Positions 5,533 to 49,712 of a DNA stretch of 64,000 bases are shown one piece after another (positions within the stretch are counted from its first letter, which is position 1; each line of letters opens with the position of its first letter). The DNA comes from Patescibacteria group bacterium (GTDB lineage Bacteria; Patescibacteriota; Minisyncoccia; UBA6257; 1-14-0-10-40-38): NCBI GenBank assembly GCA_038064975.1, contig JBBTRX010000006.1, positions 79,154 through 143,153 on the forward strand. The letters are read 5' to 3'. A program made the position numbers and the translations under genes. The notes below the pieces were generated by a model that searched no databases, was not told where the DNA came from, and worked only from the letters and a program-made list of their open reading frames with translations.

Positions 5533-6228
5533 ATGTTAATAGATAAATTTAATAAATTTCTAAAATCGATTGATCTTGAGGCTTATAGAAATCAATATAG
5601 GCCCGTTAAGATTGTAGAAATGGATTTATCCAAAGAGATACAAGCAATTGAAATGCTTTATGAAGTTTATTGGCATCAAAAAAGATTTTTGACGTTTGAA
5701 GAATTTTATGAAGAATATTTAAAAAGTAAGGGAAAAGAGATTGAAGTTTTTAGAAAAAAGACTACGATGTGCAAAGATTGTTTCTATAGAGGATTGCCTG
5801 CAAGAATTTATAGAACATGGGCTAGTATTATTACTCAAATACATGCAGGATATGTCGCTGAGTCTGTTTTTGGAACAGGGACAGTCTCTATGTCTATAGA
5901 ACTTGATCATAAAGGAGCGGATTTTCAGGTTGAATATATAAAGAGAATTTTAAATTATCAAGTAAAAAAGAAATCTCTTGGCAGAGAAGTTAGACAAGAA
6001 AAACCAAAATCAAAGAACCCGTTAAAAGGGGAATTTGTAGATATTAAATACGAAGTTCCTAGTAGTGATTATTTTGAAAATCCGAAAAAGAAGAATGGGG
6101 ATTATAAATTGCCATATGAAAGATTTAAAAACAATAAAGAATTAGAAAGATTTTCAAACGGCTTTGTTGTTTTTACTCCCTATGTTTTTCAGAAAAAGAA
6201 AAAGGAAATAGATGATACTTTAAAATAA
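5533..6228 (+). CDS. hypothetical protein, probable second component of the R-M-like module (nuclease or specificity subunit)
   Basis: Begins 3 nt after the preceding stop (operon). Contains ELDHKGADFQVEYIK acidic/Lys motifs. AT-rich island composition. No confident family assignment. Confidence 0.4.
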   Translation: MLIDKFNKFLKSIDLEAYRNQYRPVKIVEMDLSKEIQAIEMLYEVYWHQKRFLTFEEFYEEYLKSKGKEIEVFRKKTTMCKDCFYRGLPARIYRTWASIITQIHAGYVAESVFGTGTVSMSIELDHKGADFQVEYIKRILNYQVKKKSLGREVRQEKPKSKNPLKGEFVDIKYEVPSSDYFENPKKKNGDYKLPYERFKNNKELERFSNGFVVFTPYVFQKKKKEIDDTLK

Positions 6229-6229
6229 T

Positions 6230-7744
6230 TCAAGAAATATTTACACTAGATACTATCTTTTCGGCCATCCGTACGTAATCGGGATTAATCTCAAAACCGA
6301 TATACGATTGTCCTAATTCTTTTGCTGCGACACATTCTGAACCAGTTCCCACAAACGGGACGAGAACCACGCCGTCTTTATTCGGAATTGCTGACCTGAT
6401 AAGCCTTCTAGAAAGCTCAAGGGGTTTCTGTGTAGGATGTTTCATTATTTCATGTCCTTCGTGTTTCTGTAATTGTCGTGGCGCATGTACTTCGTCGCAG
6501 GTTTTGCATAAAAACCATCTTTCAATCATTCCTGCTCCACCAGCTAAAGCAGCGATTTTAATAACATCTCGGGGCAATGCTCCACCAGCATGAGCGTTGT
6601 AAATAGTCTCAGTCCCTCCTTTACTGAATCTTCCCACCGTTCCTTTTCTTACTTTTCCAGCAGCTCCATTTAAAAATCCTTCGGTATAGGGTTCCCTAAC
6701 GTCATCTCTATTAAAATTTGGCTTCTCTTTCCAAGCGCAAATAATTGATTCATGACTTCTCTGCCAAAAATTTAAAGAAGCAACATTTTTATTCGTATAA
6801 TGCCAAATTAACCAGCGTTTATTTATAGGGATTTCTACAGAGAGATGAGCTAAAATTTCACTAAATCCATATATAAACATTGTTCCCGCTGGTTTCATTA
6901 TCCTAATACTTTGATTGATCCATTCTTTGCACCACGAAACATATTCACTTAATTCTCGTTTATCAATGTTATTTCCAAAATCTTTACCGATATTATATGG
7001 AGGATCAATTATAATAACGTCGCAACTTTCTGACGGCAAATCTGATAATCCTTTTATTACATCACTTAATAATATTTTATTGAGTGGGAGTTTTTGATAT
7101 TTTTTCTCTTCCCTTTTGATTTTCGGCAAAACCGAAACATTTTGAGGATTTTCTTTAATCACATCAAGTACGATTCCTTGTATAGAAACATCACGATCAT
7201 CTCGTAATATGATCGGCTCCATGTTTTTATTTGCCGGCTGTAATCGTATATGATTTTTTTCTTTATAGAATTTTTTTAACGTTGCTTCTTGATTATCTAT
7301 TAATGCAACAACTTTTTCTCCATTGTTTGCCGTTGATTGATGTTTGACAAGAATGATGTCCCCATCATTTATATTTTCTTCAACCATACTATTGCCAATC
7401 ACGCGAAGCGCATAAACATCTCCAGAAAGGGGGATTCTGTTTTGCGGTACAGCAATCGTTTCTTTTTCTACGTCAAAAAGAGTAAGGGGTTGTCCTGCGG
7501 CAATGGCGCCCAAGAGGGGAACTTTCACTAATTTTTCTGATCTGGATATCGTTATACTGCGCGGCTTATTGATTTGTTTATTTAATAAACCCATTTCTTC
7601 TAATGCGCTTACGTGCTGGTGTACGGTAGAGACTGCTCGCAATTTGAAATGATGCTTAATTTCTTGGAGTGAAGGAGCGTACCCCTTTTTAGCGGTGGAA
7701 GCGATAACAAAGTCGTAGATTTGTTTTTGTTTCCTTGTGAGCAT
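6230..7744 (-). CDS. LexA repressor fused to a beta-class N4-cytosine/N6-adenine DNA methyltransferase
   Basis: The N-terminal 200 aa align along their whole length with LexA: LTRKQKQIYDFV winged HTH, the Ala-Gly cleavage site in PLLGAIAAGQP, catalytic Ser in GNSM and Lys in ATLKKF. The C-terminal 300 aa carry IIIDPPYNIG (motif IV DPPY), HPTQKPLEL and VLVPFVGTGSE (motif I); this order is typical of pfam01555-type MTases. Confidence 0.8.
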   Translation of the reverse strand: MLTRKQKQIYDFVIASTAKKGYAPSLQEIKHHFKLRAVSTVHQHVSALEEMGLLNKQINKPRSITISRSEKLVKVPLLGAIAAGQPLTLFDVEKETIAVPQNRIPLSGDVYALRVIGNSMVEENINDGDIILVKHQSTANNGEKVVALIDNQEATLKKFYKEKNHIRLQPANKNMEPIILRDDRDVSIQGIVLDVIKENPQNVSVLPKIKREEKKYQKLPLNKILLSDVIKGLSDLPSESCDVIIIDPPYNIGKDFGNNIDKRELSEYVSWCKEWINQSIRIMKPAGTMFIYGFSEILAHLSVEIPINKRWLIWHYTNKNVASLNFWQRSHESIICAWKEKPNFNRDDVREPYTEGFLNGAAGKVRKGTVGRFSKGGTETIYNAHAGGALPRDVIKIAALAGGAGMIERWFLCKTCDEVHAPRQLQKHEGHEIMKHPTQKPLELSRRLIRSAIPNKDGVVLVPFVGTGSECVAAKELGQSYIGFEINPDYVRMAEKIVSSVNIS

Positions 7745-9296: not shown

Positions 9297-9773
9297 ATGA
9301 GGATAAACAACACATTCAAGCTCATTATAGCCATTGTTGTTTCCGAACTCGCCGGGATCATTGGCTCGGTATTCACGATATCGTCCGTCGCTGGCTGGTA
9401 TGCAGGAATCGTGAAGCCGGCAATTAATCCTCCAGCGTGGGTGTTCGGACCGGTCTGGACGACGCTCTTTGCGCTCATGGGCATCGCCGCGTTCCTCGTA
9501 TGGAAGAAAGGATTGGATCGTAGGGATGTAAAAATTGCCCTCGGTATATTTCTCGGCCAGCTAATCCTGAACACGCTTTGGTCAATTATCTTTTTCGGTC
9601 TACGCAGTCCTGGCGGTGCATTGATTGAGATCGTATTCCTCTGGCTCGCCATTCTCGCTACTATCATCGCTTTTGCAAAAATCTCAAAACCGGCAGCTTG
9701 GCTTTTGGCGCCGTATATCCTTTGGGTTAGCTTCGCGATGTACTTAAACTACGCAATCTGGGCATTGAATTAA
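9297..9773 (+). CDS. tspO: TspO/MBR family tryptophan-rich sensory protein
   Basis: Five-TM architecture with conserved Trp/Pro patterns (PPAWVFGPVWTTLF, LWSIIFFG, APYILWVSFA). GC content returns to the genome average here. Confidence 0.85.
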   Translation: MRINNTFKLIIAIVVSELAGIIGSVFTISSVAGWYAGIVKPAINPPAWVFGPVWTTLFALMGIAAFLVWKKGLDRRDVKIALGIFLGQLILNTLWSIIFFGLRSPGGALIEIVFLWLAILATIIAFAKISKPAAWLLAPYILWVSFAMYLNYAIWALN

Positions 9774-9783
9774 AACATGAGTA

Positions 9784-9819
9784 CAACATTCCAACATTCT
9801 GCAGATTGTTGGAATGTTG
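9784..9819. repeat. palindromic repeat copy 1 (CCAACATTCTGCAGAATGTTGG family), one mismatch; candidate operator/promoter element
   Basis: caacattccaacattctgcag/attgttggaatgttg pairs at 17 of 18 positions about a CTGCAG centre. It is followed by TGTAAATAT, which looks like a -10 box. Confidence 0.7.
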
Positions 9820-9907
9820 TAAATATTGCGCAATATTATTAATCAAATCACATTTTGTGCGTAATAGCGTTCATATATATACTAGATACAGAAAATAAAA
9901 ACTAATT

Positions 9908-10672
9908 ATGCAAAAAACATTACTTTCAATTGGAGGCGTTCTCATCATTCTCGTCGTGGGGTTCTTTGTGCTGAATAGCTACATATACAATGAAAAGCAG
10001 GCGGGCTTTACCGCAGGGGATACGGTTTCGGCTACAGGCACCGTGCTTGCTATTGATTTGGAACAGGTAGCCTTTGATGGGCCATTCCTGATTACCTTAA
10101 AGCCTGAGGACGGCAAGCTCCTCACAATTGCCGTGCCTTCTATGGGACTGCAACTCTGTGAGGCGTATAAGGCGCTCAATATTGGTGACGTATCGCTCAT
10201 TAAAGTAGGCGACGAGTTTGAAGTGCGCGGAATCGTAGGCGAAGACGGCTCAATCGTCCCATGCGAATCCGCGGATCACTATCTGCGCCCCACGCCACTT
10301 ATTGTGGAGGACTTTGAAGGCGAAGCAGATCCTAAAGTCATGACACTCAACATGAAAACGTGGAATTGGATATATGCAATGAGTGGTGGAGAGGAAATTC
10401 AACCAAAAGCTCCAGGCATATTTACGCTCACATTTGGTGAAGAAAATAGATTTACCGCCACAACCGACTGCAACGCCATGTCCGGCAGCTACTCTGTAGG
10501 TACCTCCACGATTGCGTTCTCAAAAATCATCAGCACAAAAAAATTCTGCTCAAATTCCCAGGAATCTGATTTCGCATCCATCCTTCAAAAAGCAACCGGC
10601 TACCACTTCACCTCCCGCGGCCAACTCATTCTAGACTTCAAAACCCCCTCCGACACCGCAGAATTCAACTAA
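9908..10672 (+). CDS. membrane-anchored extracytoplasmic protein with C-terminal META/HslJ-like (DUF306) domain
   Basis: N-terminal signal-anchor MQKTLLSIGGVLIILVVGFF. The C-terminus reads ...FTLTFGEENRFTATTDCNAMSGSYSV...KFCSNSQESDFASILQKATGYHFTSRGQLILDF, which matches the META-domain pattern. Confidence 0.6.
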   Translation: MQKTLLSIGGVLIILVVGFFVLNSYIYNEKQAGFTAGDTVSATGTVLAIDLEQVAFDGPFLITLKPEDGKLLTIAVPSMGLQLCEAYKALNIGDVSLIKVGDEFEVRGIVGEDGSIVPCESADHYLRPTPLIVEDFEGEADPKVMTLNMKTWNWIYAMSGGEEIQPKAPGIFTLTFGEENRFTATTDCNAMSGSYSVGTSTIAFSKIISTKKFCSNSQESDFASILQKATGYHFTSRGQLILDFKTPSDTAEFN

Positions 10673-10720
10673 CCCTTACCTCACGACACTCCAACATTCT
10701 GCAGATTGTCGGAATGTTGT
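10670..10720 (+). repeat. 51-bp direct repeat, copy A (begins at the stop codon of the preceding gene and includes palindrome copy 2)
   Basis: taacccttacctcacgacactccaacattctgcagattgtcggaatgttgt is identical to 11599..11649. Confidence 0.85.
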
Positions 10721-10740
10721 AAATAGAGCAAAACAACATT

Positions 10741-11601
10741 ATGCAAAAAACGCTACCAATAATTATCATCATGATAATCATCGTGGGTTTTGGTGTAGCG
10801 TGGAAGTTCGTAAACAATGAAGCGCCGAGGGGTATGAGCACTGAATGCACGAAAGATTCCGATTGCCCCTCTCTACTATATCTCTGTGAGGAAACACAGG
10901 GTTCGGGAACGGTGTGCTCCAGCACCGACCCCACATGTGTTCCTACGCACACGACCATTGCAGGAGAATGCAAAGTAAAAGAAGGTAATCGTTGTACGCT
11001 GGATTCAGACTGCGCTTCCGGAAATATATGTAATAACAACCTTTGTACAAGTCCGATCGGAAGGGAATGCAGCGGACCAAGCGACACGAGCTGTCCCACG
11101 GATTTTGAATGCATACAAGGGTGCGGTTCGCCAGTTGGGTATCCAGGTGAGCCACCGCCTCCATACTTCTGTCAGCTTAAAGGCTATATTCGCTCGTGCC
11201 CTATTTGTCTTGCCAAACATACGTTAATTGATACGCCGCTTGGTGCGGTAGCAGTAGAAAATTTACAAAAAGGTACACCAGTGTGGACGGTGAGTAGTTC
11301 CGGCGAGCGCGTTTCCGGAGTAGTTACGCTGACGAGCAAAACGCCCGTTCCGTTAAGTCACAGGATGGTACAGCTTGTACTACAAGATGGGCGTACGCTT
11401 TCTGTTTCTCCAGGACACCCGACTACTGATGGACGCAAGGTAGGAAGCCTCACTCCAGGCGAGGTATATGACGGCGCTCGGATAATTTCTTCTCACCGAG
11501 TTGCCTACGGAGACGGATATACCTACGATCTTTTACCCTCGGGCGAAACCGGATTTTACTTCGCAAACGGGATTCTTCTTGATAGTACACTCCGCCCCTA
11601 A
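10741..11601 (+). CDS. secreted/membrane-anchored Cys-rich protein with C-terminal Hint (bacterial intein-like/Hedgehog-type) autoprocessing domain
   Basis: Signal-anchor MQKTLPIIIIMIIIVGFGV, a region with about 20 Cys, then Hint blocks. Block A is CLAKHTLIDTPLG, block B (TxxH) is LSVSPGHPTT, and blocks F/G are YTYDLLPSGETGFYFANGILL. There is no terminal HN and no C-extein. Confidence 0.65.
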   Translation: MQKTLPIIIIMIIIVGFGVAWKFVNNEAPRGMSTECTKDSDCPSLLYLCEETQGSGTVCSSTDPTCVPTHTTIAGECKVKEGNRCTLDSDCASGNICNNNLCTSPIGRECSGPSDTSCPTDFECIQGCGSPVGYPGEPPPPYFCQLKGYIRSCPICLAKHTLIDTPLGAVAVENLQKGTPVWTVSSSGERVSGVVTLTSKTPVPLSHRMVQLVLQDGRTLSVSPGHPTTDGRKVGSLTPGEVYDGARIISSHRVAYGDGYTYDLLPSGETGFYFANGILLDSTLRP

Positions 11602-11649
11602 CCCTTACCTCACGACACTCCAACATTCTGCAGATTGTCGGAATGTTGT
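11599..11649 (+). repeat. 51-bp direct repeat, copy B (includes palindrome copy 3)
   Basis: Identical to 10670..10720. The TGgTAATAT extended -10 sits immediately 3' of it, and the ArsR start codon is about 7 nt beyond that, implying a leaderless transcript. Confidence 0.85.
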
Positions 11650-11665
11650 GTGGTAATATAGAGAG

Positions 11666-11953
11666 ATGGACAAGACGAAATCACCAAAACAGATGGAACG
11701 TCATCTGAAGGGGATGGCGAATCATTATCGTATTGAGATACTTCTTCTTATCGCCGATCGCTCGAAAATAACGCTGGAGGAAATTACCGACATAGTTGGG
11801 GCAAACGAGAAAACCCTTAGTGAACACACAGGTAAACTCTATCAAGTTGGACTGATCAATAAAAAATACCGCGGCAGGTTTGTAGAACACTCCCTGTCGC
11901 CCTACGGCAAAACATTCGTCCGTTTCTTACAATCATTCCAAAACACGCAATAA
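11666..11953 (+). CDS. ArsR/SmtB-family winged-helix transcriptional regulator
   Basis: HLKGMANHYRIEILLLIADRSKITLEEITDIVGANEKTLSEHTGKLYQVGLINKKYRGRFVEHSL matches the ArsR HTH-wing pattern. It is flanked on both sides by the palindromic repeat. Confidence 0.75.
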   Translation: MDKTKSPKQMERHLKGMANHYRIEILLLIADRSKITLEEITDIVGANEKTLSEHTGKLYQVGLINKKYRGRFVEHSLSPYGKTFVRFLQSFQNTQ

Positions 11954-11998
11954 CATTCCAACATTCTGCAGAATGTTGGAATGTTATTGTTTTTGTTT
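11951..11998 (+). terminator. palindromic repeat copy 4: perfect 36-nt palindrome plus U-tract, an intrinsic terminator
   Basis: taacattccaacattctgcagaatgttggaatgtta has 18-bp perfect arms around TGCA, followed by ttgtttttgttt. It overlaps the ArsR stop codon. Confidence 0.75.
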
Positions 11999-12073
11999 GC
12001 AAATCTCATGCGGTAAGAGCAGAATTAGCTTTTCAAACCCATTAACTCATCAACTGTTTAACTCATTAACTAC

Positions 12074-14935: not shown

Positions 14936-14954
14936 GACACTAATTTAAATCAAA

Positions 14955-14986
14955 AACCGCTTAGCCATTTGGCCGAGCGGTTTTTG
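14955..14986 (+). terminator. intrinsic terminator after csp
   Basis: ccgcttagcc-attt-ggccgagcgg followed by ttttt. Confidence 0.6.
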
Positions 14987-33241: not shown

Positions 33242-33246
33242 AAAAA

Positions 33247-33282
33247 GGCTACTTCGATCCAATAAGATCGTAGTAGCCTCGT
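33247..33282 (-). terminator. intrinsic terminator of the minus-strand Zn-ribbon gene
   Basis: aggctacttcgatc-caataa-gatcgtagtagcct with a U-tract on the minus strand. Confidence 0.55.
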
Positions 33283-49653: not shown

Positions 49654-49690
49654 ATAAAAAAAGTTCCCACCAACGGATTCGTTGGTGGGA
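49654..49690 (-). terminator. intrinsic terminator after the 100-aa ORF (end of the secY transcription unit)
   Basis: cccaccaacg-gatt-cgttggtggg with a U-tract on the minus strand. Confidence 0.65.
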
Positions 49691-49712
49691 GCGTAGTAGA
49701 GTCTTCCCTGTA

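Follow-up and report, generated by a model that had tools for sequence, protein, structure and literature searches.

A 34-bp palindrome as the probable portable operator of a 95-aa ArsR-type protein in Patescibacteria and other bacterial phyla

Repressors of the ArsR/SmtB group (SmtB, CzrA, CadC, ArsR, HlyU and BigR) are small winged-helix proteins with an HTH_5 domain and an inverted repeat over their own promoter, repression presumably being due to promoter occlusion. A similar organization was found in a 64,000-nt stretch of contig JBBTRX010000006.1 of a Patescibacteria group bacterium (assembly GCA_038064975.1, positions 79,154 to 143,153; hereafter the window, numbered from its first base), in which four copies of a 34-bp palindrome are placed at and near the gene of a 95-amino-acid (aa) ArsR-type protein. 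This locus probably encodes an autoregulated repressor with a portable, stop-free palindromic operator, to which the 95-aa protein would bind. In contrast to the described ArsR/SmtB repressors, this protein has no metal or thiol ligand set, the palindrome has the architecture ACA-N5-ACA / TGT-N5-TGT instead of a 12-2-12 repeat, two sites bracket the gene, the second one on the stop codon, the mRNA is apparently leaderless, and copies of the site are present in coding sequences and in other phyla.

Other described systems share part of these characteristics. Repetitive extragenic palindromic elements (REP/REPIN), with their associated tyrosine transposases (RAYT), also show a gene flanked on both sides by a dispersed short palindrome whose type matches the gene type. 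However, REPs are species-specific, while the sequence of this palindrome is conserved across phyla; besides, the product of the flanked gene is a DNA binder of 95 aa and not an HUH/Y1 (IS200/IS605-like) transposase, the apparent copy number is low, and some copies are intragenic. Rickettsia palindromic elements (RPE) are in-frame palindromic DNA in housekeeping genes, translated as a short tolerated peptide loop, a feature shared by the present element in other genomes and not in the window. RPEs are about 100–150 bp long and restricted to Rickettsia, and have no known cognate protein; in contrast, the element described here is 34–36 bp long, occurs in metagenome-assembled genomes (MAGs) of Patescibacteria and of the Planctomycetota-Verrucomicrobiota-Chlamydiota (PVC) group, is the apparent operator of an adjacent regulator, and has kept its symmetry. 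Auxiliary operators (lacO2 in lacZ, galOI in galE) are likewise extra operators in or beyond a coding sequence, a few hundred bp off, comparable to the 335–338 bp across the regulator gene and to the in-frame tspO sites located downstream of a site that precedes tspO; the auxiliary operators, however, are degenerate and arose where they stand, whereas the present 34-mer recurs in nearly perfect form in many unrelated genes. The systems parS/ParB and Noc with its binding sites (NBS) share a few highly conserved palindromes, one by the gene of the binder and others in open reading frames (ORFs), but the protein class differs and the fixed promoter geometry of the present site points to transcription. 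What appears new is how widely the site occurs and how it behaves: a stop-free palindrome, nearly invariant, that seems to travel with its presumed binding protein across phyla and to stay symmetric within essential genes.

The perfect form of the palindrome is AACATTCCAACATTCTGCAGAATGTTGGAATGTT, and the four 34-mer copies of the window, with 0–4 mismatches, start at 9785, 10685, 11614 and 11952. ACA occurs twice in each arm, at a distance of 8 nt, giving the architecture ACA-N5-ACA-N10-TGT-N5-TGT. A search of the 64 kb with the 22-mer core (≤3 mismatches) retrieved only the sites 9791, 10691, 11620 and 11958, 0.00 being expected from shuffles; the same four sites, and no more, were obtained with four family consensus sequences (≤7 mismatches), a scan that gave zero sites in 677 kb of shuffled sequence. 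The four copies are thus where the initial annotation had placed them. The regulator gene and its immediate surroundings comprise the following features.

11599..11649, unstranded: second occurrence of a 51-nt unit, holding palindrome copy 3 (34-mer 11614–11647), the presumed operator of the ArsR promoter.
11651..11659, plus strand: extended −10 element TGGTAATAT; its hexamer TAATAT ends 6 nt before the ATG (11666).
11666..11953, plus strand: gene of the ArsR/SmtB-type winged-helix protein, 95 aa (Pfam HTH_5).
11948..11989, unstranded: palindrome copy 4, perfect, 21+21 nt, with the ArsR TAA (11951–11953) inside.
11990..12000, plus strand: T-rich tail TTTTTGTTTGC 3′ of copy 4 (sequence and terminator call).

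The 95-aa protein would bind the palindrome and repress its own leaderless promoter through copy 3. As this copy is centred about 35 nt 5′ of the ATG and ends 3 nt from the extended −10 element, a protein bound there would leave no access for RNA polymerase. Copy 4 may have two functions: as RNA it would end the transcript, with a 21-bp stem and a U tract, and as DNA it would be a second operator about 338 bp away. It was called as terminator-like, with a 20-pair stem and the tail TTTTGTTTGC, and folds at −30.9 kcal/mol (z = −7.7); a GC-containing stem-loop followed by a U tract, as in intrinsic terminators, is present in copy 4 only, copies 1–3 being without U tract. The perfection of copy 4 and its terminator features, hairpin and T-rich tail, agree with the initial annotation, but its arms are longer than the 18 bp proposed and the stop codon lies within the palindrome rather than before it. 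Operator binding, repression and termination in vivo are putative functions. Around copy 3 (11604–11656) the outer flanks CTTACC/GGTAAT also pair, stretching the symmetry over the −10 region, with an RNA fold of −22.9 kcal/mol, and the −10 region is mirrored by a degenerate counterpart, GTGAGGTAAG against GTGTGGTAAT.

To compare this geometry, 80 metagenome loci encoding homologs 72–78% identical to the regulator were used, 64 of them distinct. In almost all of them the layout was palindrome, 1–3 nt, TATAAT, exactly 6 nt, and ATG. A perfect TATAAT 6 nt from the ATG was present in 42 of the 64 distinct loci and a 5/6 match in 13 more (55/64 in total). Since the −10 hexamer ends 6 nt before the ATG, transcription would start at the A of the ATG; a leaderless transcript of the ArsR gene, already suggested in the initial annotation, is therefore strongly supported by comparative data. 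A −35-like TTGAGA was found at the dyad centre of the homologous loci, 16 nt from the −10, so that the dyad lies on the −35 region, the classical position for repression. An inverted repeat over the gene's own predicted promoter is present and conserved, the geometry of a putative autoregulation by binding and repression. The palindromes of the homologs differ from those of the window, with the sequence AACATCCTTACAAACTTGAGAATGTAAGGATGTT or the form ..ACTGGAGTTTGT.., and the second palindrome, overlapping or abutting the stop codon, is also conserved: the 34-mer begins with base 2 of the TAA stop in 26 of 55 homologous loci, and both flanking palindromes were detected in 53 of the 64 distinct ones, most commonly 335 nt apart. 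Two of the loci carry GC-rich inserts of about 21 and 33 nt (CCTGCCCGCCTCTGGAGGGAG; CCTCGCCCGTCCGTAGCTTTACGCGAAGGAGGG) placed precisely where the two palindrome arms meet, with ACTTG on one side and AGAAT on the other, in L166 upstream and in L193 downstream of the ArsR gene, which suggests a second small element targeting the dyad centre.

The HTH_5 score of the 95-aa protein was 28 bits (cut-off 22), as corresponds to a winged-helix DNA-binding domain, and the family profile matched CadC, HlyU and ArsR chains among the PDB entries, with E from 1e-4 to 1e-3. Its recognition helix, KTLSEHTGKL, aligns with the S-x-H-L-R helix of CadC. The protein is 100% identical to that of a Patescibacteria MAG. 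It has zero cysteines, its C-terminal helix SPYGKTFVRFLQSFQNTQ is without Asp, His or Glu, and therefore without an alpha5-type ligand set, and the NCBIfam HTH_metalloreg score (40.3 bits) is below the cut-off of 55; for these reasons the label "ArsR" should not be taken as metal sensing. The AlphaFold model, built on a shallow alignment, had a predicted local distance difference test (pLDDT) score of 63, too poor for use. The family is compact yet widespread, with at least 1,986 clusters at 90% identity; at 50% identity, 254 clusters reached E ≤ 1e-3 and 69 reached E ≤ 1e-10.

Site type and recognition helix vary together, as expected from a protein–operator pair. The helix KT[IL]GEHTRRL (Gly-helix) is paired with ACATCCTTACAAACT[TG]GAG... 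sites (TTGAG/TGGAG type), and the helix KTIS[QE]HTR.L (Ser-helix) with ACATTCCAACATTCTGCAG... sites (CTGCAG type). The window protein has a backbone of the Gly-helix kind (77% vs about 55% identity), yet its sites are of the CTGCAG type, and among the 120 closest relatives listed it alone carries Ser at that helix position. Thus, the palindrome is very likely, from this comparison of sequences, the cognate site of the adjacent ArsR-type protein. In one locus (L135, 234–1745) two regulator paralogs are arranged in tandem, each one with its own site type (TTGAG type and ATTCTCAAG type), and they look like insulated duplicate systems. Nine Ser-helix loci (L092, L111, L033, L077, L022, L090, L062, L064 and L105) carry the form ..TTCCAAC..GTTGGAA.. 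upstream and ..TTCTAAC..GTTAGAA.. downstream of the gene, a consistent difference that suggests different affinities or roles of the two flanking sites.

The dyad symmetry of the palindrome exceeds that expected from its base composition by column. Among 156 distinct sites, 78% of positions showed Watson–Crick pairing, against 69% in column shuffles (maximum 70% in 500) and 21–37% with shifted partners, and 6 of the 17 pairs occurred as two or three pair types. At non-Watson–Crick positions T.G outnumbered C.A at pairs 8-27 and 11-24, while the mismatches in the window are T.T and A.C and not wobble pairs. The maintained symmetry fits a dimeric protein that would read both halves, but it would also fit an RNA or DNA hairpin or template-switch correction.

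Copies 1 and 2 lie among the genes upstream of the regulator, as follows.

9297..9773, plus strand: TspO/MBR gene (Pfam TspO_MBR, E = 8.9e-51).
9782..9821, unstranded: palindrome copy 1 (34-mer core 9785–9818), arms 9782–9801 and 9802–9821.
9908..10672, plus strand: gene of a membrane-anchored META-domain protein, MQKTL... (Pfam META, E = 8.6e-16; N-terminal hydrophobic segment in the translation).
10670..10720, unstranded: 51-nt unit formed by a TAA stop, 12 nt and palindrome copy 2 (34-mer 10685–10718), repeat family D1.
10741..11601, plus strand: gene of a Cys-rich membrane-anchored protein with a Hint-like C-terminal domain, MQKTL... (borderline Pfam Hint_2).

Copy 1 lies 8 nt past the TspO stop and 88 nt ahead of the META gene start; its arms of 20+20 nt are 95% complementary, with a single T.T mismatch, near-perfect as had been annotated, and it folds as RNA at −22.7 kcal/mol (z = −5.8). 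Copies 2 and 3 are imperfect (13/17 Watson–Crick pairs plus one G.T) and, as noticed before, mutually identical; the fold of copy 2 is weak (−13.4 kcal/mol). The identity extends to 51 nt (10670–10720 = 11599–11649) and begins exactly at both stop codons, the two preceding genes, whose TAA opens each unit, being unrelated. This perfect repeat implies, on sequence identity, a recent duplication or gene conversion, which may have carried in the Hint-domain gene as a 929-bp unit. The Hint_2 match (27.6 bits) is slightly under the cut-off of 28.4, and an EB module match is weak. Both upstream genes open with ATGCAAAAAAC, encoding MQKTL, in agreement with the initial annotation. The META protein had no homolog in the other 198 loci (tblastn). 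In other genomes, TspO is found next to this regulator family more often than any other gene, in about 20 of 80 homologous loci (tblastn) and often 40–60 nt past the ArsR stop; in the window, the palindrome is 3′ and not 5′ of the TspO gene. The linkage with TspO is the sole hint at a possible signal, which might be tetrapyrrole or oxidative stress. An ATP-binding cassette (ABC) exporter gene comes next after the regulator gene.

The proposal that copies 1–3 all work as promoters is supported for copy 3, where the geometry is conserved, and is weak for the other two. The −10-like strings are TGTAAATAT after copy 1, TGTAAATAG after copy 2 and TGGTAATAT after copy 3; those of copies 1 and 2 (TAAATA) are weak, ending in A or G without the critical final T. 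A sigma-70-like TTGTGC-17-TATACT, recognized by eye, is nearer the META start than copy 1 and is a better promoter candidate. A promoter scan gave no plus-strand call at the palindrome copies and 3 matches in the region against 5.5 by chance; as these are fewer than chance, the scan was given no weight. Minus-strand calls of TTTACA-16-CAGAAT within copy 1 (9796–9823) and copy 2 (10696–10723) would point back into TspO and META and may mean nothing. Copies 1 and 2 would be further binding sites, between TspO and META and between META and Hint, respectively; given this position, the genes of the TspO, META and Hint region would probably be under the same regulator, by repression or roadblock, and the two copies may act in repression, stop read-through or have arisen by recent duplication. 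All copies in the window are ≤12 nt from a stop codon, and since copies 1–3 lie 8–12 nt past one, they may belong to the upstream genes.

With regard to the rest of the window, no tRNA genes were found in the 64 kb, Rfam gave no match at gathering thresholds anywhere in it, and no transposase or recombinase is encoded within about 5 kb of its palindromes. Between 7920 and 9294, two ORFs (311 and 137 aa) without Pfam match have a G+C content of 28–31%, against 42–51% in the genes rightward; this stretch, just 5′ of TspO, is probably an insertion of foreign, AT-rich DNA. A TaqI-type restriction endonuclease gene (5533–6228, plus strand) adjoins a 504-aa fusion gene (6230–7744, minus strand) that combines a LexA DNA-binding domain, an S24 peptidase and an N6/N4 DNA methylase, an unusual LexA–methyltransferase fusion in a restriction-modification pair. 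Three unrelated 34-nt near-palindromes (14/17 pairs) are located at 14952–14985, 33246–33279 and 49661–49694; the first one, AAAAACCGC...GCGGTTTTT, resembles a bidirectional terminator.

To assess the distribution of the palindrome, its central 20-mer was scanned in one genome per species, and at least 118 loci were obtained. About 110 of the 118 loci listed carry the full 34-mer; as the outer positions (−7 to −1 and +20 to +26), outside the searched bases, also match in 93–120 of 123 sites, the whole 34-mer is nearly invariant. The hosts among the listed matches are many lineages of Patescibacteria and MAGs of Verrucomicrobiota, Kiritimatiellia and Lentisphaerae (52–59% G+C), and the regulator-plus-site pair was present in about a hundred other sampled genomes and metagenome contigs. 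The regulators of the PVC MAGs are 77–84% identical to those of Patescibacteria, closer than some pairs within Patescibacteria, which implies transfer between phyla. The regulator with its two sites would form an ancient module of Patescibacteria, conserved and able to pass horizontally. A regulator homolog (49–58% identical) is directly beside the site in about 20 of the 118 listed loci and is the only recurrent neighbour, the 181 flanking proteins of the listed matches forming 148 clusters; in L002, L031, L066 and L084 the regulator gene is likewise located between two palindrome copies. Seven long ORFs stop at the TAA that is the first codon of the element, like the window regulator, and a T tract follows 45 of 187 non-regulator sides, often as AAAAACATTCC...GGAATGTTTTT. 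Copy number appears low, with four copies in the 64 kb, none of them away from the regulator, and elsewhere at least 3–5 loci per genome. In JAUSFV01 the identical 34-mer occurs in three contexts, flanking the regulator (L092), at a gene 3′ end (L029) and in frame in fba (L047). The palindrome was not found in viral contigs, and no prior description of the system was found in the literature by sequence, peptide or topic. The self-contained mini-regulon of the initial annotation is accordingly too narrow a description, the 34-mer being placed beside unrelated genes in many genomes and phyla, at 3′ ends and within coding sequences. A repeat present at dozens of unrelated sites had been named there as the sign of a REP-like element; the distribution is indeed partly REP-like, but copies seem to be few and the regulator gene accompanies them.

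Several candidate identities were rejected. An adapter or assembly artefact disagrees with the long contigs, the several assemblers and studies, an element shorter than the final k-mers (k141_), and flanks that encode the two parts of a single protein. A DNA-uptake sequence would occur at a much higher density, and the element is too short for an integron attC site and lacks R′/R″ cores. Matches in Acidobacteria and Bacteroidales (L015, L027, L048, L061, L075, L080 and L114) comprise the searched core only and are due to chance or coding.

The CTGCAG-type palindrome is stop-free in all six frames, so that the site could be copied into genes without destroying them. At least 14 long ORFs read through the element in one frame, xAA CAT TCC AAC ATT CTG CAG AAT GTT GGA ATG TTx (12 codons), encoding the peptide (K/E/Q)HSNILQNVGM(L/S/F); ORFs in other frames were detected only at high-GC loci, where spurious ORFs are common. 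The host proteins, identified by their translations and PDB matches, include dihydroorotase (pyrC, two species), fructose-bisphosphate aldolase (fba), phosphoglycerate kinase (pgk), glutamyl-tRNA synthetase (gltX), TsaD, MurD, MiaA and a glycosyltransferase, and the peptide is an extra loop sequence when aligned to solved PDB structures. Of 120 dihydroorotase orthologs listed (63–84% identical), about 25 have an insertion in one loop and the rest a short loop (VP-G--FEPL), with a patchy distribution among close relatives. The inserted peptides differ (HSNILQNVGM, HSSILQNTRI, HSNVLKNIRI and others), and the diverged copies are still palindromic in DNA, with 13–15 of 17 pairs kept via paired changes on both arms. 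No target-site duplication was visible at the pyrC insertion, whose loop length varies and whose boundaries are uncertain. In seven loci, the TspO gene beside the regulator carries, in frame and around codon 75, a palindrome of the type proper to that locus (HPYILENVRM or HSNILENVRM), which is absent from the window TspO and its 120 closest listed homologs. Two TspO genes of other lineages, 85–87% identical to that of the window (L206:3137–3170 and L207:1308–1820) contain unrelated in-frame hairpins in the same loop between transmembrane helices 2 and 3 (TM2-TM3), one being ACCCCCACACCAAA-GAT-TTTGGTGTGGGGGT, encoding NPHTKDFGVGV, and the other having a stem of 12 bp. Palindromic insertions from several families seem to be either favoured or tolerated in this loop.

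A wider proposal can be made, tentatively and with less than even confidence: that the regulator and a 36-bp site form a portable unit moving between phyla, with the site copied to intergenic regions and to one frame of essential genes, kept symmetric and tracking the specificity of the regulator. It would be either a new mobile element with a DNA-binding partner or an intragenic-operator wiring, by roadblocks or loops, of housekeeping genes in minimal genomes.

Several data weigh against the autoregulated repressor with a portable operator. The whole case is comparative. The helix–site correlation is largely confounded with phylogeny, the window protein being a single independent case, and the sites of the Gly-helix group vary (CCAAC vs CTTAC) without helix change. 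Symmetry can be held without selection by quasi-palindrome template-switch correction, an established mutational mechanism, and selection on an RNA hairpin could maintain it too. Neighbours other than TspO do not recur, and the sites flank gene 3′ ends (84) more than 5′ ends (62), which fits a terminator or selfish element better than a classical regulon. A −10 at fixed offset is not enriched beside non-regulator sites (19/187 sides), and copies 1 and 2 have the poor −10 strings described above. Finally, the protein is without recognizable sensor residues, so that "regulator" may misname a constitutive DNA binder.

The alternative that survives best, although unlikely, is a selfish palindromic repeat, similar to REP, RPE or miniature inverted-repeat transposable elements (MITE), copied by an enzyme encoded elsewhere, with no regulatory role; the position at the ArsR gene would be a by-product, or the gene would be part of the element. 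With regard to the terminal inverted repeats of MITEs, the palindrome could be taken for two such repeats joined end to end. The identical 34-mer beside so many unrelated proteins and phyla, the in-frame housekeeping-gene copies, with a pyrC insertion that is patchy among orthologs 66–84% identical, the gene between two repeats as RAYT genes are between REPs, the transfer between phyla and the identical 51-nt duplication are all in accordance with it. On the other hand, neither a nearby transposase or recombinase in the window nor a target-site duplication was visible, the apparent copy number is low with no copies in viral contigs, and the bracketed gene encodes a DNA binder without catalytic domain; besides, the promoter geometry is precise and conserved, and old intragenic copies keep their symmetry rather than decay.

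Palindromes acting mainly as RNA hairpins (terminators, mRNA stabilizers or RNase III sites), the ArsR-type gene being one of many that end in one, are still less probable. In their favour, all window copies lie close to stop codons, copy 4 is a textbook intrinsic terminator, many copies elsewhere abut stops, with seven ORFs ending on the TAA of the element and T tracts at about a quarter of non-regulator sides, and T.G exceeds C.A at the two pairs indicated. However, a hairpin has no need for an invariant 34-nt sequence across phyla, copies 1–3 lack the U tract, copy 2 folds weakly and the window mismatches are not wobble pairs; moreover, the upstream copies precede the predicted transcription start, and would hence be outside the regulator mRNA, and sequence type follows protein type.

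A chromosome-organizing or other non-transcriptional DNA binder (parS/ParB-, Noc- or MatP-like), with the palindromes as anchoring sites, was considered very improbable. The few copies per genome, the extreme conservation across phyla, the tolerance in coding regions and the copy by the gene of the binder are all parS-like, and the protein has no sensor residues; but it is a minimal ArsR-type winged helix without ParB, NTPase or oligomerization domain, the site has a fixed position over the promoter, and the sites are grouped in the few kb around the gene. A site-specific recombination site, with 14-nt arms around the 6 nt CTGCAG, as in loxP or dif cores, would turn the genes between copies into cassettes and agrees with the arm–centre–arm layout, the genes delimited at 900, 929 and 338 bp, the 51-nt junctions beginning at stops, the always bracketed regulator gene and the foreign GC-rich inserts at the centre in L166 and L193, but it is the most improbable of all, since there is no recombinase among the neighbouring genes, sites with a symmetric centre carry no orientation, copies 2 and 3 stay identical for 15 nt outside the palindrome but only on one side, a pattern that duplication or gene conversion fits better than a crossover at the centre, and in-frame genic copies require insertion and not recombination between existing sites.

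For genome annotation, the peptide (K/E/Q)HSNILQNVGM(L/S/F) flags an inserted DNA element and not a protein motif. In Patescibacteria regulators are scarce and hardly any regulon is known from experiments, and a regulator family with a sharply defined 34-bp site, easy to synthesize, and a predicted leaderless promoter would be a direct entry point to their transcriptional control. The symmetric in-frame copies also raise a testable question, whether transcription-factor sites can spread like mobile DNA and then serve within genes such as pyrC, fba, pgk, gltX, tsaD, murD, miaA and tspO.

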